A stretch of 64,000 nt of DNA, from the NCBI GenBank assembly GCA_028710985.1, contig JAQTTB010000001.1:359397-423396 (forward strand), given 5' to 3'. Each line of letters starts with the position of its first letter. The first letter of the stretch is position 1. Of the stretch, positions 779 through 50,394 are shown piece after piece. The DNA comes from Patescibacteria group bacterium (GTDB taxonomy: Bacteria > Patescibacteriota > Patescibacteriia > JAHJFT01). Below the pieces are notes generated by a model. It worked only from the letters and a program-made list of their open reading frames with translations, had not been told where the DNA came from and made no database searches. The position numbers and the translations under genes were made by a program.

Positions 779-943
779 GACTGAACTCCTTATTGCCTCC
801 CGCACTGCGGGGGGACTTGGCTTGGGTTTAAGGAACTAAGTTTCGCATCAGCCGCCAATTGTGATTCGCGGCTAGTGTGATGGCACGAAAGTTCGTGCCG
901 TGTGGTGTGAGAAAAGCGGATTGGAACTGTGAAAGGTGAGTGG

Positions 944-2606: not shown

Positions 2607-5600
2607 ATGATATTTAAAAGAATGGCGCCGACCGAGCCGGGCAGAAAATATTTTACCCGCTTGCGCGAGGCGATTCCGCTCCCGAACCTAATTCAGGTCC
2701 AGCTGGACTCATATCGCTGGTTTCTTGAAAACGGTATTCGCGAGCTTTTTAACGAGATTTCGCCGATTAAGGATTTTATCGGCCGTGATCTTGAGTTATA
2801 TTTTGAAGATTATTATTTCGACGAGCCCAAGTTTGACGAGCCGACATCGCGCGAAAAAAATATTACTTACGAAGCGCCGCTCCGTGTGCGCGCCAAGCTC
2901 ATGAACCGCCGCACCGAAGAAGAGCGCGAGCAGGATATTTATCTCGGCGACTTGCCGGTAATGACTGACCGCGGCACTTTTATCATCAATGGTATCGAGC
3001 GCGCGGTTGTCACCCAGCTCGTGCGTTCGGCCGGCGCTTTTTTTACTTCCGAATTCAACCGCGGACGCAAGTATTACGGAGCGAAACTGATTCCCAACCG
3101 CGGCGCCTGGCTTGAATTTGAAACCGACGCGAGCAATGTCATCTGGGTGAAGATTGATCGTAAAAGAAAAGTCGTGGTTACGGCGCTCATGCGTTCGTTC
3201 GGATATTCCACGGATGAGGAAATTATCAAAGAGTTTAAGGACGTGGATATTCACCCGACCAATCGTTACATTGAATCAACCATCGCGAAAGATGTTTCGC
3301 ATGATCAGGACGGCGGCTTGATCGAGGTGTACAAAAGAATTCGTCCTGGCGATCTTGCAACTCCAGATAATGCCAAAAGCTTGATACACGCCATGTTTTT
3401 TAATTACGATCGTTATGATTTGGGTAAAGTCGGTCGTTATAAATTCAATCTGCGTTTCGGACTGGATACGGCAAAAAAACACGTTGAAGATGAAAAGAAT
3501 CGCATTCTCCGACCCGAAGACATTGTCATGATTGTCCGTGAAATTATCCGGCTGAATATTAGCCAGGGAGACGCCGATGATGTCGATCATCTCGGCAACC
3601 GCCGCGTTCGCGCGGTCGGAGAACTGGTGCAGGCGCGTTTCCGCGTCGGCCTCGCGCGCATGGAGCGCATTGTCAAAGACCGCATGAGCACCATTGATGT
3701 TTCGGCCCTGACTTCCGGAAAATTGGTCAACGCCCGCCCGGTTATCGGCGCGGTGCGCGAATTTTTTATGTCATCCCAGCTTTCGCAGTTCATGGATCAG
3801 ACCAATCCTCTGGCCGAACTTGAGCACAAGCGCCGGCTCTCGGCCATGGGCCCGGGCGGCTTATCGCGCGAACGCGCCGGATTTGAAGTCCGTGACGTCC
3901 ACCCGACTCACTACGGCCGCATCTGCCCGATTGCCACTCCCGAAGGACCGAACATCGGCTTGGTGGGCCATCTTTCCTGCTACGCGCTTGTTAATGAATA
4001 CGGTTTTATTGAATCTCCTTACCGTCGCGTGGTGCATGATGTGCCGAACGACGGCAAGTCCGCGGTCGGGGAATATGCCCGCCATGATTTGAAAGACGCT
4101 GAAGGCAAAATTGTTGTTTCCGCCGAAGAAAAGATTACCAAAGAAATCGCTGCGAAACTTATAGGCAACGGAACGGAAACCATTCCGCTCAAGCCGCGCG
4201 TCACCAATGATATTGAATATTTGAACGCGTTTCACGAAGAAAAATCAATCTGCGCTTCGGCCACCACTGCAATCGACGAAAAAGGATTCTTTCTGGAAAC
4301 GCAGGTCGGCGTCCGCAAACGCGGCGAGCCGAGCGTTGAAGACGTTCACTCCATTGATTACATGGACGTTGCTTCAAAGCAGATTGTGAGTATCGCCACT
4401 GCCTTGATCCCGTTCCTGGAACATGATGACACTGTCCGCGCCTTGATGGGCACGAACATGCAGCGCCAGGCAGTGCCGTGTGTTAAAGCCGATGCTCCGA
4501 TTGTTGGCACCGGCGTGGAGGAGCGCGCGGCGCGCGATTCCGGGCATATGATATCGGCCGAAGAAGACGGTGTGGTGAAATATATTGACGCCGCCCGCAT
4601 TATTATTGAGAAGAAAGACGGCGACGCGCATGAATATGTGATGAAAAAATTTCTGCGCTCCAATGCTTCCACCTGCATCAACCAGACTCCGGTTGTTTCA
4701 CCCGGCCAAAAAATTAAGATTGGAGATGTTCTCGCCGACGGTTCGGGCATCGATCAGGGCGAACTTGCCCTGGGCCAGAATGTTTTCGTGGCTTTCATGG
4801 CCTGGGAAGGGTACAACTACGAGGACGCGGTTATTATTTCCGAGCGCCTTGTGCAGGACGACCGTTATACATCAGTGAATATTGAACACTGCGTGGTTGA
4901 TGTGCGCGATACCAAACTCGGGCCGGAAGTGGTTACTTCGGATATTCCGAATATCGGCGAAGAAAAACTCCGCAATTTAGATGAGAACGGCATTGTACGC
5001 GTCGGCGCCGAAGTCACATCCGGCGATATTTTGGTCGGCAAAATTACTCCCAAGGGCGAAACCGAACTTTCGGCCGAAGAAAAACTCCTGCGTGCCATTT
5101 TCGGCGAGAAGGCCCGCGACGTGCGCGACAGTTCGCTTTATCTTGAGCACGGTGAACATGGCAAGGTAGTGGATATTAAAATTTTTTCACGCGAGGACGG
5201 CGACAAACTGCCGCCCGGCGTTATTAAATCAATTCAGGTTTCCGTGGCCGATCTCCGCAAGGTGCAGGTTGGCGACAAGCTCGCCGGCCGTCACGGCAAC
5301 AAAGGCGTTATTTCCAAGGTGGTTCCGATTGAAGACATGCCGTTTCTCGAAGACGGCACGCCGGTTGACATGATTCTTTCGCCGCTCGGCGTTGTCTCCC
5401 GCATGAACCTCGGCCAGATTCTGGAAACTCATCTTGGCCTTGCGGCCAACGCCCTTGGCTATCAGGTTGCGACTCCGGTTTTGGATGGCGTCTCGGAAGA
5501 AACTATTCACAGCGAACTCAAGCGCGCCGGTTTTCCGTCCGACGGAAAAATCAAGGTATTTGACGGCCGCACCGGCGACGCATTTGAAAACAAACCGACA

Positions 5601-18212: not shown

Positions 18213-18686
18213 CTAGATATCGGAGACATCGACGAGCATGTCTTCGGACATGTCTTTGATGTGCATCTCTTTTTGCCAGTCCCTGTATGTGTCCTCCAGA
18301 ATGGACGTGTCACGGCCAGCAGAACGCAGGTACTCTTCGTATGCCAGGCACTCTTCGATCTTGTCCTTGTCCTCGTGGGGCTCCATGCTCTCGCACCACT
18401 CGTAGAAATCCTCATCCCCCTCGTCGCTCATCTGTTCCAGGGCCACGCGGCCAGTCATCTTGAGTTCCACGCGCGCGGACTGACGGTCGGCGCGGAAGTA
18501 GCGGTTTCGAATCGCGTGTAACTTTTTCCGCCCGGCGTTGCTCTTCTCTTCAGTGAAGAGATAGTTTCTCCGCTTCCACTCAGCGAAGAGATGGTCTATC
18601 TGCTTCCGCCGATTGCTGAGACGGTGTGGGCATCTTCTGACTTCGATATCCATGTTGTCCTCCTCGATACTTGCATTGGAGCGCAA
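18213..18686 (-). CDS. hypothetical acidic protein (about 146-157 aa)
   Basis: ORF only. Codon usage matches the island. Confidence 0.4.
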   Translation of the reverse strand: MRSNASIEEDNMDIEVRRCPHRLSNRRKQIDHLFAEWKRRNYLFTEEKSNAGRKKLHAIRNRYFRADRQSARVELKMTGRVALEQMSDEGDEDFYEWCESMEPHEDKDKIEECLAYEEYLRSAGRDTSILEDTYRDWQKEMHIKDMSEDMLVDVSDI

Positions 18687-18974: not shown

Positions 18975-19020
18975 GAAATCCTCCTTGTTATTATGTCCGC
19001 ATCAGCCGCCGATTTGCATC

Positions 19021-19063
19021 AGCGTCTCATGTGGAGGCATGACGTAAGAATGTCATGCCAGTT
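19021..19063 (-). repeat. island-specific intergenic element, copy 2
   Basis: See 18136-18178. Confidence 0.55.
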
Positions 19064-19087
19064 AGGTGGGTAGGAAAGAGCGGATTG

Positions 19088-21055
19088 TCAGAACGACAGG
19101 ATGCCCGTGGAGGTTCTCGTGACGCCGGTGAATGTCCAGCCGGAGTCATAGAGGTTGATCCACGCGCGATGCCGCGGTGTGCCGCGTGTGCCAATGGCGA
19201 AGACCAGGAACTCGTCATTCCAGTCCGGAATCCGGATGAAGTATGACGAGCTGTCGTTCGCATAGCTCGTGCACACTGGGAACGCGGGGTCGGTGTGGTA
19301 GGTGTCCGGATCCCAGACCTGGTCGTCCCAGTCTTCGGACCCGTAGGTCACGCAGAGCGCGCCGATTTCCTCTGTCCCTTCCAGGGCAAAGGGGTTGTCG
19401 CTGAACGCGGCCGCGTGATGAGCCTCGAGCGTGCCGCGGATCTCAATCTCGCGGTAGCCCGACATGGTCCGGCCGGTGATGCTGTACGTGCCCGAGGTCG
19501 TTGAGCTTGAACAGCCCTCGTCCACGGTACCGTCGCAGTCATCATCTGCCGAGTTGCAGGACTCGCCCGGCGGAACGCAGGTCCCCCAGCTGCACGAAGT
19601 ATCGCAGGTCTGGGTGCCGGTCGTTGAGCACGAACTCGTGCAGGTGCGGGTTGAGTAGCGGACGCAGGTGAACGTCTCGTCCGTGAGCCCGTCGGAATCG
19701 TTGTCGCTGCCGTCGCAGATTTCGGTTCCGGATATTGGAGGCGTTGCACCTCCGCAGGAGCCGAGTCCCCACGCCGTAAGCGCGGTGTTTGACGCGGTGC
19801 GGCAGAGATCGCCGGCGAGCACGAGCTGTGTCACATCCATCTTGAGGATTGCTCCCCAGGAGGTGATGACCGCGGGTTTCACCTGCGTGAACCCGCAGAG
19901 CGTGAAGCCCATGGGCTCGCCGTCGCCCGGGTAGTCGAGCGAGAAGCACGCGCTGTCCAGGCAGCCCGTTGTGGCGTCATGGTAGGCCGTGACCCGGTCG
20001 ATGTACTCGCCCGGATTCAAGGGCCGCACCAGCCCGTAGCCGTCGCGCGAGTCCAAGTAGAACGTGCCGGAGAAGTTGACGCATGACCCGATTGCGACCC
20101 CGGAGAGCCGGCTTATCTGGTCCGGCGTGGCCGGCGGCTCCCAGAACGTATCGCAGTCCGGGTCGTCGTCGTCCGTCACTCCGTCGTGATCGTTATCCGC
20201 ACCGTCGGTGCAGACATCCATCTCCGGGAGGGCCGGGCAGCGCAGTGCGAGCCGGGTCGTGCCGCCATCCGAGGCGGCCGCACGGTAGCAGGGCTCCGTG
20301 CTCACGAAGTCGAACTTGGAAAGATCGAGCTCGTACGTCGCCGAACCGAGCTGGAAGAACCAGCCCGTGTCGCCGCCCCGGGTGTACCAGAGGCTGCCCG
20401 GTGTGGCCGTTTCCGACCACGTCTTGCAGATCCGACCGGTCGTGGTTGACCAGCTGTTCCAGCTGCCGAAGGCGCAGAGCGCGCTCGGCCGGCCGGGGAG
20501 TGTGGCGAACGTTCCGGAGAGCATGTCTCCGTAGATTCGCGACTCCACCGCGTCGCCGGGGTTTGAAACCCAGTCGCGGAACTCGGCATAGATCGTGCCG
20601 ATTGGGGCAGGCGGGCCGGGGATTTCCCCGCCATGCGGGGAATCATCGGTCGCGGTGTCCACGGCCGTGTCCGGAGTTGTGTCCGGAACCGTGTCCGTGG
20701 TCGTATCGGTTGCCGTGTCAGTCGCCGTGTCGCAGGTCGTATCCGGCTCGGTGGCCGCATCGTCGGTCCCTGTGTCGGTCGTCGTGTCCGCGGCCGTGTC
20801 AGAATCAGTTGCCGCGTCCGTACCGCCGATGCAGTCCTCCTCGTCCACGAACCCGTCGATGTCGTCGTCCCAGCCGTTGCCGCAGATCTCGGGGGCGGGT
20901 GCGTCGGAATCGGTTCCGGCATCGCAGATCTCGTCCACGAGTCCGTTGCCGTCGTTGTCCACGCCGTCGCAGATCTCCGGGGGCCAGCCCATTGGCTCGT
21001 TGGTGCAGCCAGTGAGCATCCAGATCGTCGCGATCGTCCAAAGCGTCTTCTTCAT
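19088..21055 (-). CDS. secreted lipoprotein (lipobox LTGC) with repeated CxDGxDNDxDGxxDE metal-binding-type motifs and Thr/Asp-rich low-complexity segments
   Basis: Signal peptide MKKTLWTIATIWMLTGC and multiple EICDGVDNDGNGLVDE-type repeats (MopE-like putative metal-binding motif). The family assignment comes from motif recognition only. Confidence 0.7.
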   Translation of the reverse strand: MKKTLWTIATIWMLTGCTNEPMGWPPEICDGVDNDGNGLVDEICDAGTDSDAPAPEICGNGWDDDIDGFVDEEDCIGGTDAATDSDTAADTTTDTGTDDAATEPDTTCDTATDTATDTTTDTVPDTTPDTAVDTATDDSPHGGEIPGPPAPIGTIYAEFRDWVSNPGDAVESRIYGDMLSGTFATLPGRPSALCAFGSWNSWSTTTGRICKTWSETATPGSLWYTRGGDTGWFFQLGSATYELDLSKFDFVSTEPCYRAAASDGGTTRLALRCPALPEMDVCTDGADNDHDGVTDDDDPDCDTFWEPPATPDQISRLSGVAIGSCVNFSGTFYLDSRDGYGLVRPLNPGEYIDRVTAYHDATTGCLDSACFSLDYPGDGEPMGFTLCGFTQVKPAVITSWGAILKMDVTQLVLAGDLCRTASNTALTAWGLGSCGGATPPISGTEICDGSDNDSDGLTDETFTCVRYSTRTCTSSCSTTGTQTCDTSCSWGTCVPPGESCNSADDDCDGTVDEGCSSSTTSGTYSITGRTMSGYREIEIRGTLEAHHAAAFSDNPFALEGTEEIGALCVTYGSEDWDDQVWDPDTYHTDPAFPVCTSYANDSSSYFIRIPDWNDEFLVFAIGTRGTPRHRAWINLYDSGWTFTGVTRTSTGILSF

Positions 21056-21091
21056 GATCTTCTTTCTCCTATGTTGCTATCTTGCTGTTTC

Positions 21092-21195
21092 AATGTACTC
21101 TTCATGAACCCACCATCCCAATGATGGCGGACTCATGTGAGTGCGCGACTGATTCAGGGGATGAATCATTATGTCGCGCAAGTTGGTGTGAAAGA
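21092..21195 (-). promoter_or_regulatory. 104-nt conserved leader, copy B (upstream of the lipoprotein gene); contains a GCGCGAC...GTCGCGC hairpin and a short uORF whose stop overlaps the main ATG
   Basis: About 98% identical to 22342-22445. Each copy sits directly 5' of a minus-strand Cys-rich gene. Confidence 0.6.
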
Positions 21196-21200
21196 GCAAT

Positions 21201-22304
21201 CTATTTATTCTGTGCTGCCTTTTTCTTAGCACGGCGTTCACGCGCGTAGCAGGTGCCGCAGACAGGTCCTTGGTCATTCCGTATTTTCACCGGCCTTACC
21301 TTGTGGCAGCAAATGCATTCTTCCTCAGACCGCTTGTAGCAGTTTACGCAGACAGGTCCTTGGTCAGTCCGCTGATTAACCGGCCTTACCTTGTGGCAGC
21401 AAATGCATTCTTCCTCAGGCCGCTTGTAGCAGTTTACGCAGACAGGTCCTTGGTCAGTCCGCTGATTCACCGGCCTTACCTTGTGGCAGCAAATGCATTC
21501 TTCCTCAGGTGGTTGGTAGGCCTTATAATAGCAACTTGCGCATATGGGGCCGTCATCAGTACGTTTATGAACAGGCTGCTCTTTATGGCAACGAACGCAT
21601 TCTTCTTCAGGCGCTCGGTAGCATCTATCACAGACAGGGCCGTCATCTAAGCGCTTCCTAACTGTTCTTACCCGATGGCAGAGTATGCACTTTTCTTTAG
21701 GGCGTAGGTGAGTCTTTCTGTAGCAGGCATCACAGATTGGACCCTCGTCCGTGCGCTGAACCACGGGCCTTACCCTATGGCAACAAATGCATTCTTCTTC
21801 CGGGCATTTATAGCAACAGTCACAGATTGGACCCTCGTCCGTGCGCTGAACCACGGGCCTTACCCTATGGCAACAAATGCATTCTTCTTCCGGGCGTTGG
21901 TAGGTTTTATTGTAGCAGCTTGCGCAAATGGGGCCATCGCTCGTGCGCTGCAAAACCGGCCTTACACTGTGACAGCGAACGCATTCTTCAAGGGCCGTAT
22001 GGTAACACTTGCCGCAGACTAGGCCGCCGTCCATGCGTTGAAAATTAATTTCGCTCCTTTCGTTGCAGACGCAGCAAATATCAATTTTCCTGTGGGACTC
22101 CAGGCCGGCGCATTGCCGACAGACGAGCGCGCCGGTTTGATTGAAATATTTTAGCGCTCGCAGATTATTGCAGTCCGGACATTTGCTCCGGGGCTTTGGC
22201 TGGCCTTGGCCCTCGCGTCGTGTTGGCTCGTGCATGCGCACGCAGTCTTCGTCTCCACAAACCGGGCAAATATGCCCGTGCGTTTCAGTGTGATTCTCGC
22301 ACAC
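21201..22304 (-). CDS. tandem zinc-ribbon-like repeat protein (367 aa; about 10 repeats of C-x-C-C-H-x10-GP-x-C-x2-C-Y)
   Basis: The protein repeats EEECICCHKVRPVNQRTDQGPVCVNCYKRP. The underlying 99-bp DNA repeats at 21289-21486 are near-identical. Probable GTG start. Confidence 0.65.
   Translation of the reverse strand: MCENHTETHGHICPVCGDEDCVRMHEPTRREGQGQPKPRSKCPDCNNLRALKYFNQTGALVCRQCAGLESHRKIDICCVCNERSEINFQRMDGGLVCGKCYHTALEECVRCHSVRPVLQRTSDGPICASCYNKTYQRPEEECICCHRVRPVVQRTDEGPICDCCYKCPEEECICCHRVRPVVQRTDEGPICDACYRKTHLRPKEKCILCHRVRTVRKRLDDGPVCDRCYRAPEEECVRCHKEQPVHKRTDDGPICASCYYKAYQPPEEECICCHKVRPVNQRTDQGPVCVNCYKRPEEECICCHKVRPVNQRTDQGPVCVNCYKRSEEECICCHKVRPVKIRNDQGPVCGTCYARERRAKKKAAQNK
21289..21486 (-). 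repeat. two near-identical 99-bp tandem repeats (plus diverged copies up to about 22000) inside the Zn-ribbon repeat gene
   Basis: ccggccttaccttgtggcagcaaatgcattcttcctcag... repeated with 1-2 mismatches. Confidence 0.85.
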
Positions 22305-22341
22305 GGCATACCTACCTTTCTGTGGTTAGATTTTGTTGTCG

Positions 22342-22445
22342 AATGTACTCTTCATGAACCCACCATCCCAATGATGGCGGACTCGTGTGAGTGCGCGACT
22401 GATTCAGGGGATGAATCATTATGTCGCGCAAGTTGGTGTGAAAGA
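22342..22445 (-). promoter_or_regulatory. 104-nt conserved leader, copy A (upstream of the Zn-ribbon repeat gene)
   Basis: See 21092-21195. Confidence 0.6.
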
Positions 22446-22446
22446 A

Positions 22447-22797
22447 CTAGTCGTCTCCGCGGCGGAGACGGTCGTAGCGAATCCGGTTGTATGCCCACTG
22501 GACGTGCCGCTCGTCGTAGCTCTCGCCCGGGTTGGGCAATGGCCGACCGCCGGGGAAAAGGCCGGTCTCGGGGTCGAACTTCTTCGGCCTGGGAAGCTTG
22601 GGCCGGCGGGACTGTTTTACAATCCGGTTGTAGGCCATGACCGGCAATACGGCCGGGGCGAGGAACACGAGGAATATCCGGTCGAGGATGTCGGTCGTCT
22701 CGCGTCCCATGCAGAACGCGCCGATGGTCCAGCAGATGATGTTCCATGGTGGGGTGACGAGGGCGGCGATGGTGAGAATTCTATAGAAAGCGCGCAT
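22447..22797 (-). CDS. small membrane protein (116 aa)
   Basis: Two hydrophobic helices at the N-terminus. Last gene of the GC-rich island. Confidence 0.45.
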   Translation of the reverse strand: MRAFYRILTIAALVTPPWNIICWTIGAFCMGRETTDILDRIFLVFLAPAVLPVMAYNRIVKQSRRPKLPRPKKFDPETGLFPGGRPLPNPGESYDERHVQWAYNRIRYDRLRRGDD

Positions 22798-23195
22798 GCT
22801 CTTCCTTTCCTAGAGGCAATGCCTCCCTCTTTGGCAAATGGCTTGTAAAGAACGACTCTGGGAGAGAGTATTTTTTATTGCCATCGGCCAAAGGGGGAGA
22901 CCCGCCTCAAACAAAAAGGCGAAGTCAGCTTGGGAAGAGTATTTCCAGTCTAACTTCGCCCATATAGCCAAATCCGGCTATATTTTGCGATTATTTATGA
23001 TATTTCTCTCTCCCCGATATTTGATTGTTAACGGGGTATAATATCATATTTTTGCGATTTTGTCAAGAGTGGCCGCCGGCCGAGCCGGCGGCAATTTTAA
23101 GTTGTAAATTTTAAATTTTAACTCAAATCCCAATTTTAAATGATAAATTACTTAATGTCGGGTCGCTTCGCCATTAAAGCATTCAAAATTTTTCA

Positions 23196-23240
23196 TTTAA
23201 AATTGAATTAAAATTTAAAACTTAAAATTTAAAATTAAAA
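23196..23240. repeat. AT-rich 41-bp unit tttaaaattgaattaaaatt|taaaacttaaaatttaaaatt: the 'empty site' version of 36106-36170
   Basis: The same unit at 36106-36170 carries the 20-nt palindrome exactly at the marked junction. Confidence 0.8.
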
Positions 23241-23894
23241 TCACGCTGATTTTTCCCGCCATTTCTTGATTTTTGCGTGATCGCCGGAAAGCAGGATTTT
23301 GGGCACTTTTTTGCCCTTATAATTTTCCGGCCGGGTATATTGGGGAAACTCTTTATATCCTTTCTTGGAATAGGTTTCTCCTTCAAGCGATATCTCGCAT
23401 CCGATTGTCCCGGGAATGTGCCGGCCGACCGCATCGGCAATAATCATGGCAGCCAGCTCTCCGCCGGTAATAATATATTCGCCGACGCTAAGCTCTTCAT
23501 CCGCCACGAGTTCGCTGACCCGTTCATCGACCGATGAATAACGCCCGCACAAAAATATCAGCTGATCATAATTTATGAGCCGCGGCACATCTTTTTGCGA
23601 AAAAATATTACCCCGGGGAGAGAGCAATATTACGCGGGTTTTTTTACCGCGTTTTTTTACTGCTTTAACCGCCCGGTCAAACGGTTCAACCATCATTACC
23701 ATGCCGGCGCCGCCGCCGTAAGGCTGATCGTCAACCGACCGGTGCCTGTCACTGGTCCATTTTCTAAGATTGTGCACCTTGATTGTAATCAATTTATTCT
23801 TAACCGCCTTGCCCAAAACACCAACCTCGAAATAAGGCTCAAACACTTCGGGAAAAATCGATATAAAATCAAATTGTATTGTTTTTTTCTTCAT
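23241..23894 (-). CDS. trmD: tRNA (guanine37-N1)-methyltransferase
   Basis: SPOUT fold motifs (...GGGAGMVMM...LLCGRYSSVDERV...). It lies in an rpsP-KH-trmD operon. Confidence 0.9.
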   Translation of the reverse strand: MKKKTIQFDFISIFPEVFEPYFEVGVLGKAVKNKLITIKVHNLRKWTSDRHRSVDDQPYGGGAGMVMMVEPFDRAVKAVKKRGKKTRVILLSPRGNIFSQKDVPRLINYDQLIFLCGRYSSVDERVSELVADEELSVGEYIITGGELAAMIIADAVGRHIPGTIGCEISLEGETYSKKGYKEFPQYTRPENYKGKKVPKILLSGDHAKIKKWREKSA

Positions 23895-49698: not shown

Positions 49699-50394
49699 AT
49701 GAATGAGAATTTATCGGAATTGCAGGAGCGTCTGGGGATAAAGTTTAAAAACGAAGATTTTTTGCGCCAGGCCATGGTGCATCGTTCATATTTAAATGAG
49801 CATCCGGATTTTCCGCTTGGCCACAACGAGCGTCTTGAGTTTTTAGGAGACGCGGTTCTTGAACTCGTGGTTACAAAACATCTTTACGAATCATATCAAA
49901 ATCCCGAGGGGGAGCTTACCAATTGGCGGGCTGCACTGGTGAACGCGCATATGCTCGCGACTCTGGCGCGTGAACTCAATATCGAAGAGTTTCTTTATCT
50001 TTCGCGCGGTGAGGAAAAAGACAACGAGTCAAAGGCTCGGCAGTATATTTTGGCGAACGCTTTTGAGGCTTTGATCGGCGCGATTTATCTCGATCAAGGC
50101 TGGGACGCTTCGGACGAATTTATCATGAAGAGCCTGATGATTAAGCTTCCGGAAATATTAAAATTAAAATTATATCTTGATCCAAAGAGCCGTTTTCAGG
50201 AAGCGGCGCAGGAGCAATTCGGCACTACGCCGACCTACCGAGTCGTTTCCGAAACCGGTCCGGACCACGACAAGCATTTTCGCATTGCCGTGCTGATTGG
50301 CGAAGATATTGTCGCCGAAGGCGACGGCTCTTCAAAGCAGGAGGCGCAGATTGAAGCCGCGAGAAACGCTCTTGAGGAAAAAGGCTGGTCGTAA
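49699..50394 (+). CDS. rnc: ribonuclease III
   Basis: ERLEFLGDAVLELVV signature and a C-terminal dsRBD. Confidence 0.9.
   Translation: MNENLSELQERLGIKFKNEDFLRQAMVHRSYLNEHPDFPLGHNERLEFLGDAVLELVVTKHLYESYQNPEGELTNWRAALVNAHMLATLARELNIEEFLYLSRGEEKDNESKARQYILANAFEALIGAIYLDQGWDASDEFIMKSLMIKLPEILKLKLYLDPKSRFQEAAQEQFGTTPTYRVVSETGPDHDKHFRIAVLIGEDIVAEGDGSSKQEAQIEAARNALEEKGWS

Follow-up and report, generated by a model that had tools for sequence, protein, structure and literature searches.

A family of two-hairpin intercistronic elements in a Patescibacteria gene array, with gain and loss of single-gene units between its copies

Structured repeats that lie between genes have been described in both phages and bacteria, and we report here a further family of them, a ~90-105-nucleotide (nt) element of two abutting hairpins that separates small genes downstream of trmD in a Patescibacteria group bacterium. 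The DNA analysed, hereafter the window, is a stretch of 64,000 nt (assembly GCA_028710985.1, contig JAQTTB010000001.1, positions 359,397 to 423,396 of the forward strand), and window coordinates are counted from its first letter. The element appears to belong with known intergenic structured repeats in which expression signals and recombination are combined, and judged by its logic the closest match is the PeSL cassette of T4-type phages. PeSL motifs comprise a consensus sigma-70 promoter and a terminating stem-loop, and recombination between their copies inserts, deletes and swaps single genes, excised mini-circles having been detected (PMC2839356, PMC4122927). Like a PeSL, the element is a conserved intergenic motif with a stable stem-loop, reaching from an upstream stop to a downstream Shine-Dalgarno sequence and start, in variable regions of small genes of unknown function; recombination between its copies likewise appears to accompany gene insertion and deletion, as suggested by an indel separating two related loci (L019 and L020) and by a Zn-ribbon gene bracketed by copies in the window. 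Unlike a PeSL, it has no conserved promoter, its two hairpins abut and lack U-tails, and it sits in a bacterial chromosome, at a locus after trmD that is syntenic across relatives; the element region has no phage DNA match.

Other described systems share one or more of these features. In phage T7, as Dunn and Studier reportedly found, RNase III cleaves intercistronic hairpins of the early and late mRNAs, and the resulting 3' hairpin stabilises the upstream message. The second hairpin of our element (H2) is similarly an irregular duplex of ~20 base pairs (bp) between presumably co-transcribed cistrons, its structure conserved over its sequence, in a host that encodes RNase III; the element differs in having an additional hairpin (H1) and conserved single-stranded flanks, and as judged from sequence its cleavage is a candidate process. 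REP sequences can stabilise the upstream mRNA and Correia elements can be cut by RNase III, both being co-transcribed and both substrates of recombination. REPs are palindromes of 20-40 nt with a conserved GTAG-type head, found in both orientations and linked to RAYT transposases; inverted repeats at the termini and a duplicated TA mark Correia elements. With REP/BIME and Correia (NEMIS) sequences the element shares the character of a multi-copy intergenic hairpin repeat. It differs from the former in its length of 90-105 nt, its two different hairpins and the confinement of 44 copies to one strand, and from the latter in the lack of terminal inverted repeats and target-site duplication and in an orientation that is strictly that of the genes.

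The attC sites of integrons carry an RYYYAAC ... GTTRRRY core at the ends of one imperfect hairpin, and it is the bottom strand that is recombined. Arrays of attC sites resemble the present array in their small open reading frames (ORFs), which share one orientation and each precede a structured repeat conserved more in fold than in sequence, in the similarity of copies within one array, and in a unit of gain and loss made of one gene plus one repeat. In contrast to attC sites, the element has no GTTRRRY/RYYYAAC core, its H1 arms vary freely, there are two hairpins and the coding strand folds better; no integrase was seen in the window or the related loci scanned. TIGR-Tas arrays were rejected as a parallel because they are repeat-spacer arrays and not elements separated by genes.

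The element family and the conservation of its structure

A preliminary description of the window had pointed to a near-identical leader duplicated upstream of two Cys-rich genes, and the duplication is real. Repeat search and pairwise alignment give a 104-nt direct repeat at 21092-21195 and 22342-22445, identical at 103 of 104 positions (99%), with a sole mismatch, T(U) versus C, at element position 61 (21135 and 22385) and with similarity dropping off sharply at either edge. A 37-nt core of the repeat finds two matches in the window and 0 in 100 shuffles, and the folding z-scores of the two copies are -4.9 and -3.75, none of 200 shuffles being equally stable. Both copies lie just 5' of minus-strand gene starts: copy B is 37 nt from the GTG (22304) of a Zn-ribbon ORF of 367 amino acids (aa), and copy A is 36 nt from the ATG (21055) of a 655-aa lipoprotein. 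Each also opens 1-5 nt past the stop codon of the preceding gene, a feature that had not been remarked before. The hairpins described earlier both exist and are larger than was stated: GCGCGAC-N23-GTCGCGC (H1) encloses an inner stem, UGAUUCA/UGAAUCA, with the loop UCCCC, and CCAUC-AUUGG-GAUGG is the tip of a 15+4-bp hairpin (H2). The repeat thus comprises two copies of a ~90-105-nt intercistronic element family, previously undescribed, of one Patescibacteria lineage.

This family was reached solely through the synteny of the lipoprotein gene. Searching the related loci with the window segment gave nucleotide matches of 45-128 nt at 78-90% identity, several per locus, and the architecture stop-element-start was repeated in every match read. 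A covariance model (R1), built from 7 seed sequences and run over 138.6 kb in 12 loci (the window and 11 related Patescibacteria loci), returned 44 matches at E < 5e-4, every one on the gene strand. A second model (R2), built from 44 sequences and run over the window with filters off, found five copies, all on the minus strand and in two accessory loci, and none in the housekeeping operons of the window:

22339-22445, minus strand: element copy B, between the ORF116 stop and the Zn-ribbon gene; H1 22393-22429, H2 22347-22392, exact repeat 22342-22445; R1 111/108 bits, E ~1e-25, R2 73 bits
21089-21195, minus strand: element copy A, between the Zn-ribbon stop and the lipoprotein gene; H1 21143-21179, H2 21097-21142; R2 76 bits, E 5e-19
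18987-19074, minus strand: element copy 3, diverged; H1 GGCAUGAC/GUCAUGCC with a short loop; R2 58.7 bits, E 4e-14, R1 27.6 bits
18059-18188, minus strand: element copy 4, downstream of a 157-aa ORF; R2 22.8 bits, E 4e-4, filters off
835-914, minus strand: element copy 5, diverged, beside rpoB, flanked on one side by a 129-aa ORF (944-1333) and on the other by a gene that starts at 778 and runs off the window start; R2 22.7 bits, E 4e-4, R1 19 bits

Copy 3 begins 12 nt past the lipoprotein stop and ends 12 nt ahead of a 78-aa ORF; its H2 5' arm is common to copy 4, which has a 48-nt insertion at the H2 tip. Copy 5 occupies a separate locus, and hence the family is not confined to the array after trmD. 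The Rfam scan that had been proposed matched no family: with Rfam 15, a gathering scan of the whole window gave only the 16S rRNA and tRNAs, and a permissive scan of 20900-23300 gave nothing overlapping copy A or copy B. Exact-pattern scans for the H2 sequence in GTDB genomes, and for two H1 patterns in IMG/VR viral contigs, found no match. Neither PHROG nor PADLOC yielded informative matches, and on this ground, together with the lack of a phage DNA match, a phage or defence origin was rejected.

Read 5' to 3' in the mRNA sense, the consensus consists of ucuucCccaCcuaCUuG, H1, H2, AAGGgaAcuU, an A/C-rich spacer, GAAAGRGAGG and the start codon. The 5' end is a pyrimidine-rich tract beginning at the upstream stop codon. 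The basal stem of H1 is G+C-rich and 7 bp long, and the top of this hairpin varies freely, from a 3-nt loop to an extra stem of ~45 nt. H2 abuts H1 directly and is composed of a 4-bp base, a small internal loop and an upper stem of 13-15 bp; after it come ~20-30 nt of unstructured A/C-rich spacer and then a strong Shine-Dalgarno sequence with the start codon of the next gene. Conserved unpaired stretches are the C/U-rich tract at the 5' end and the UCCCC loop, the latter in a subset of copies; the H2 loop is not conserved. A U-tail after H1 or H2 is found only in array-final copies, where a U-tailed hairpin replaces H2 (L019 4550-4653, there followed by a strong promoter, and L020 5408-5510); canonical U-tailed terminators occur elsewhere in the same loci.

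Both hairpins are conserved by compensatory change, and their structure is under selection. The basal stem of H1 reads GCGCGAC/GUCGCGC, GCACGAC/GUCGUGC, GCCCCUC/GAGGGGC, GCGCGAU/AUCGCGC or GCACAAC/GUUGUGC in different copies, and the H2 base, for the most part UCCC/GGGA, is ACUC/GAGU in copies A and B of the window. H2 was modelled as 19 pairs, 83% paired across copies. In the model-fitted alignment of 54 distinct sequences 88.3% of cells are paired, as against 33-46% in slid controls, with double changes in 31 of 32 pairs, and none of 500 shuffles reaches the observed values. A structure-blind MAFFT alignment of 13 copies likewise leaves H2 83.6% paired (27-45% in slid controls), with double changes in 8 of 15 pairs (at most 2 in slid controls), and RNAalifold recovers H2 independently. 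The inner H1 sequence AAUGAUUCAUCCCCUGAAUCA, with its UCCCC loop, is near-invariant in a subset of copies (window 21143-21179 and L010, L019, L020, L021, L022 and L025) and wholly missing from the other H1 copies; its rare changes are compensatory (GAUUUA/UAAAUC in L019). In the sense reading there are 103 G-U pairs versus 50 A-C pairs. The sense RNA also folds more stably than its antisense in 34 of 43 copies; the mean difference is 2.9 kcal/mol (p = 0.0017), and 10 of 12 loci agree. Folding of the sense strand, strict orientation and stop-to-start placement together favour, while not proving, a function on the transcript. The check on homologous leaders that had been called for bears out a conserved structured element in the mRNA sense: homologues exist in 11 related loci, and both of their hairpins covary.

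Across copies the element starts about -17 to +38 nt from the upstream stop and mostly ends 20-40 nt ahead of a start codon preceded by a Shine-Dalgarno sequence. It is no private leader of two Cys-rich genes: it precedes, and also follows, at least a dozen unrelated small genes, those downstream including the Zn-ribbon protein, lipoproteins, small membrane proteins, a basic 'RRFFRADRQ' protein and others, among which Pfam, NCBIfam, PHROG and PADLOC reveal no functional theme. The element is 79-87% identical across genomes, while the flanking proteins are only 42-55% identical.

Two readings of the element in terms of translation were tried and rejected. Sequestration of the Shine-Dalgarno sequence, or translational coupling, through the pyrimidine-rich 5' tract is unsupported, as pairing does no better than with shuffled flanks or non-cognate partners (duplex energy between 5' flank and Shine-Dalgarno sequence -9.33 cognate versus -9.28 non-cognate, p = 0.44). 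As for coding potential, the longer ORF crossing the element (MIHPLNQSR...) differs in length between copies, and the substitutions in it preserve stem pairing and are not synonymous. The short upstream ORF (uORF) starting MKST is present in both window copies, as had been noted; it is in the copy at 21092-21195, before the lipoprotein, that its stop overlaps the main ATG (tcATGAag), and in the other copy the uORF has 9 codons and ends 20 nt before the GTG. A coupled uORF is not a property of the family, as the MKST AUG, which lies in the H2 3' arm, reads GAC, GUG, UUG or GGA in other copies.

Gain and loss of genes between element copies

On the minus strand the order is SMC, rpsP, KH protein, trmD, promoter, leader with intrinsic terminator, ORF116, copy B, Zn-ribbon gene, copy A, lipoprotein gene, small ORFs and the 16S rRNA gene, and three genes of the array are the following:

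22447-22797, minus strand: ORF116, a small membrane protein of the PPWNIxCW family, first gene of the array
21201-22304, minus strand: Zn-ribbon repeat protein gene, 367 aa, GTG start, a single-gene cassette bracketed by copies B and A
19088-21055, minus strand: gene for a 655-aa lipoprotein with a MopE motif, conserved and the anchor of the array, Pfam PF11617 at 2.4e-7

The lipoprotein is 100% identical to P0014, a protein labelled as from a Patescibacteria metagenome-assembled genome, and its orthologues, 42-55% identical, stand in syntenic loci that read SMC, S16, KH, trmD, leader and then lipoprotein. Relatives lack a Zn-ribbon gene at the position it has in the window, L010, L013 and L015 passing from trmD to the lipoprotein gene. 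Close homologues with near-identical N-terminal residues lie instead downstream of the lipoprotein gene in L018, as two tandem genes each with elements (2713-4155 and 4226-5311), and in L021, as one gene (4313 to the contig end). They were found only by reading the loci; the word-based protein search missed them and gave only matches of at most 37% identity, in unrelated organisms (L007, with integrase and HTH genes, and L008, with Replic_Relax), in whose loci R1 finds no element. Exact look-ups of the Zn-ribbon protein and ORF116 returned no record. Other genes are similarly mobile in position: ORF116-like and 'TLYIDGR' genes switch sides of the lipoprotein gene between genomes, the ORF116 type being upstream of it in the window and L022 and downstream in L010.

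The clean presence/absence case of a single-gene cassette comes from L019 and L020, which are 88-93% identical. L019 has one extra unit of ORF159 plus element (3298-3993, against 4090-4192 in L020), and both element copies flanking the extra unit align to the single element of L020; its anatomy matches that of copy B, Zn-ribbon gene and copy A in the window. Mosaic copies within genomes (those designated a and b share H1 only in L022, and H2 only in L025) indicate exchange between copies. Units of gene plus element are thus gained and lost between element copies, the element being the break-and-join point.

The same repetition leaves its mark on assemblies. Logan assemblies of two sequencing runs contain the genes of this organism, which is present in SRR22315508 and SRR22315509, and the Logan contig with the lipoprotein gene begins exactly 30 nt within the repeat, as expected of a true multi-copy sequence. 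Among the related loci, the contig of L018 starts inside an element (1-61), those of L019, L021 and L023 start within or very near the lipoprotein gene start, and that of L003 (1-30) likewise begins in or close beside an element or the lipoprotein gene, which suggests that the repeats routinely fragment assemblies of this lineage.

A proposed portable intercistronic module and its alternatives

The reading that we favour, at a probability of roughly 0.55, is that of a portable intercistronic RNA module whose repetition also drives gain and loss of cassettes by recombination. The strong promoter after trmD would give a single transcript of the array, on which each element would act as a portable module of expression and insulation: 1) H1 may serve as a 3' protective hairpin for the upstream cistron. 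2) The long H2 duplex (~19 bp) may be a site of processing, for which the RNase III encoded in the genome is the most plausible enzyme, or a 5' stabiliser. 3) The open A/C-rich spacer with its Shine-Dalgarno sequence would allow independent translation of each cistron. 4) Recombination between element copies would excise or insert single-gene cassettes, because the same ~100 nt recurs between genes, and this would be how the Zn-ribbon gene, with a near-identical copy on either side, came to lie after ORF116 and before the lipoprotein gene. The exchange of H2 for a U-tailed terminator in array-final copies fits such a transcript-level role. The RNase III step taken alone is less certain than the reading as a whole; the 4+15-bp duplex of H2 lies between cistrons, and the candidate enzyme for cutting it is encoded in the window:

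49699-50394, plus strand: RNase III gene (rnc), PF14622 at 1.8e-39, with a double-stranded-RNA-binding domain

Several points weigh against this reading. Co-transcription, processing and stabilisation are all things that we infer from sequence. There is no single-stranded linker between the abutting H1 and H2, so that a cut between them is unlikely and any RNase III cut must fall inside H2. Copies from the same genome are related and not independent, which inflates the statistics of covariation and strand, and the fitted alignment leans to the side of the model; G-U pairs outnumber A-C pairs only modestly, at 2:1. Conservation of the hairpins would also be expected of a site recognised as folded single-stranded DNA. 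The conservation of AAUGAUUCAUCCCCUGAAUCA is unexplained by the model and hints at a specific binding partner. Finally, the scan covered 64 kb of a ~744-kb genome and so does not give a genome-wide distribution.

The element is of interest for several reasons. The genomes of Patescibacteria are tiny and encode few regulators and many surface or secreted proteins that are lineage-specific, and gene expression in these bacteria is essentially unstudied. Supported by covariation and lying between nearly all genes of a variable array, the element would offer a handle on the post-transcriptional expression of their long accessory operons, as well as on the swapping of single genes without obvious mobile-element machinery. 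The covariance model is ready for finding such arrays in metagenomes, and the repetition of the element explains why assemblies break at this locus.

Two alternatives, both of which we regard as unlikely, survive about equally. The first takes the elements for composite terminator-promoter modules, each supplying its gene with a promoter, possibly for a non-sigma-70 factor encoded in the array. The layout of stop codon, stem-loop motif, Shine-Dalgarno sequence and start is that of the PeSLs (PMC2839356). The association with variable ORFan genes and with shuffling by recombination is also the same, and a conserved gene of the array has a very weak sigma-factor-like match (E = 0.03). At the 3' edge of the element there is moreover a conserved AAGGGAAC(U)U, which we take to resemble an ECF-type -35 box; the spacing between GGAAC and CAUAG, the motif that recurs next, however, ranges from 14 to 21 nt, and GGGA pairs with UCCC as the H2 base and covaries with it, as ACUC/GAGU in the window copies shows. 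A conserved -35/-10 pair of sigma-70 type is lacking: over 28 intergenic regions the mean best score is 5.4 of 12, compared with 5.0 for shuffles, with no region reaching 10 and with inconsistent positions, whereas the control promoter, that at the head of the array, attains 11 of 12. A weak match inside the element, TTCACA-16-AATGAT, was rejected, as it is not conserved in other copies. These results also dispose of the fallback of the preliminary description, a plain duplicated promoter. Nor do H1 and H2 have the U-tails of a terminator, though U-tailed terminators exist in the same loci.

The second is a selfish or neutral miniature repeat of MITE, REP or Correia type, spread into intergenic gaps and with no host function beyond co-transcription. 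It would account for copies that are numerous, near-identical within a genome (99% in the window), mosaic and evolving in concert, that break assemblies and that are confined to accessory loci. It sits poorly with the gene orientation of all 44 copies and their exact stop-to-start placement, and with the retention of two hairpins by compensatory change in an element more conserved than the proteins around it; at ~140 nt per gene it would also be costly in a ~0.74-Mb genome. Neither end of the repeat, UCUUUCACACC... or ...GAAGAGUACAUU, is an inverted copy of the other, so that no terminal inverted repeats are visible there, and the flanks of the two repeat copies share no duplicated bases that would mark a target-site duplication.

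Improbable, in our estimate, is also the notion of integron-like attachment sites driven by a recombinase, which would be recognised as folded single-stranded DNA, with RNA structure as a by-product. The small co-oriented ORFs of unknown function with a structured repeat after each, the conservation of structure above sequence with a hairpin top of variable length, the gain and loss of repeat-bounded single-gene units and the shuffled gene order between relatives would all suit it. There is, however, no invariant core, the H1 3' arm reading GUCGCGC, GAGGGGC, AUCGCGC or GUUGUGC where attC has GTTRRRY; two separate hairpins stand in place of one bulged hairpin; and the coding strand is the better-folding one. 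A crude motif scan of the window, covering all ORFs of 120 aa or more, detected neither the box II nor the C-terminal motif of tyrosine recombinases, and the called genes of the related loci gave no Phage_integrase match. The tight spacing to the Shine-Dalgarno sequence and start, and the swap of H2 for a terminator in array-final copies, point instead to a transcript-level role. A related and equally improbable conjecture has the elements as junctions of a dedicated cassette system of candidate-phyla-radiation bacteria that would function as an integron but have no integron integrase that can be recognised: a structure-specific enzyme would cut units out as circles and insert them again at other elements, the element would supply the expression signals, and the array would be switched by the terminator-containing leader after trmD. 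Least credible, and very improbable, is the metal-responsive riboswitch or uORF-coupled attenuator of the preliminary description, which would co-regulate both Cys-rich genes and to which two stable hairpins upstream of both, a short uORF in both window copies (one overlapping the main ATG) and the 'putative metal-binding' MopE motif of the lipoprotein lend some colour, but against which stand the many unrelated genes, without common theme, that the element precedes and follows, the unconserved uORF AUG, the lack of a U-tailed terminator in internal copies and of cognate Shine-Dalgarno masking, the replaceable H1 top with loops of 3 to ~45 nt, unlike a ligand pocket, and the lack of an Rfam match.

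The head of the array and other features

Two transcription signals precede ORF116:

23038-23066, minus strand: sigma-70-type promoter, TTGACA-17-TATTAT with upstream TG, 11/12 matches
22909-22960, minus strand: intrinsic terminator, GGCGAAGUUAG...CUGACUUCGCC and then a U-run, between the promoter and ORF116, conserved in 5 loci

The promoter presumably drives the whole array, and alignment shows it to be conserved after trmD in relatives; the terminator is a candidate gate for array transcription. Both belong to a conserved unit lying directly after trmD in five genomes (window 22800-23070, minus strand; L010 7085-7420; L013 7600-7830; L015 1835-2040; L022 2124-2520). It begins with the strong promoter (CTTGACAAAA..TGnTATTAT), followed by the 5' motif GGGGAGAGAG, a variable hairpin and the intrinsic terminator. 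The terminator loop, CUYUYCCC, is complementary to GGGGAGAG and could form a pseudoknot, the pairing predicted in the window leader (about 22800-23070) being GGGGAGAG/CUCUUCCC. In three genomes a second domain past the terminator contains ACUCUCUCCC, the exact complement of the 5' motif, within a CUUUGGC..AUGG / CCAU..GCCAAAG stem. The unit has no Rfam match and looks like an attenuator, riboswitch-like leader or small RNA gating the whole array.

Among the genes of the arrays, a basic protein with an RRFFRADRQ motif is conserved (window 18213-18686; L010 12724-13182; L020 3673-4089; L019 2897-3289). The very weak sigma-factor-like match mentioned above is that of its window version to RpoE-like factors, far below the cut-off; the protein could be an array-specific regulator. 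Within the Zn-ribbon gene, 21245-22018 encodes units of ~30 aa with the pattern CxxC...CxxC, and some adjacent units of 90-96 nt are nearly identical as DNA, suggesting recent internal expansion. Lastly, an A+T-rich imperfect palindrome with 68-nt arms, 74% complementary, lies at 23093-23240, between trmD and the array promoter.

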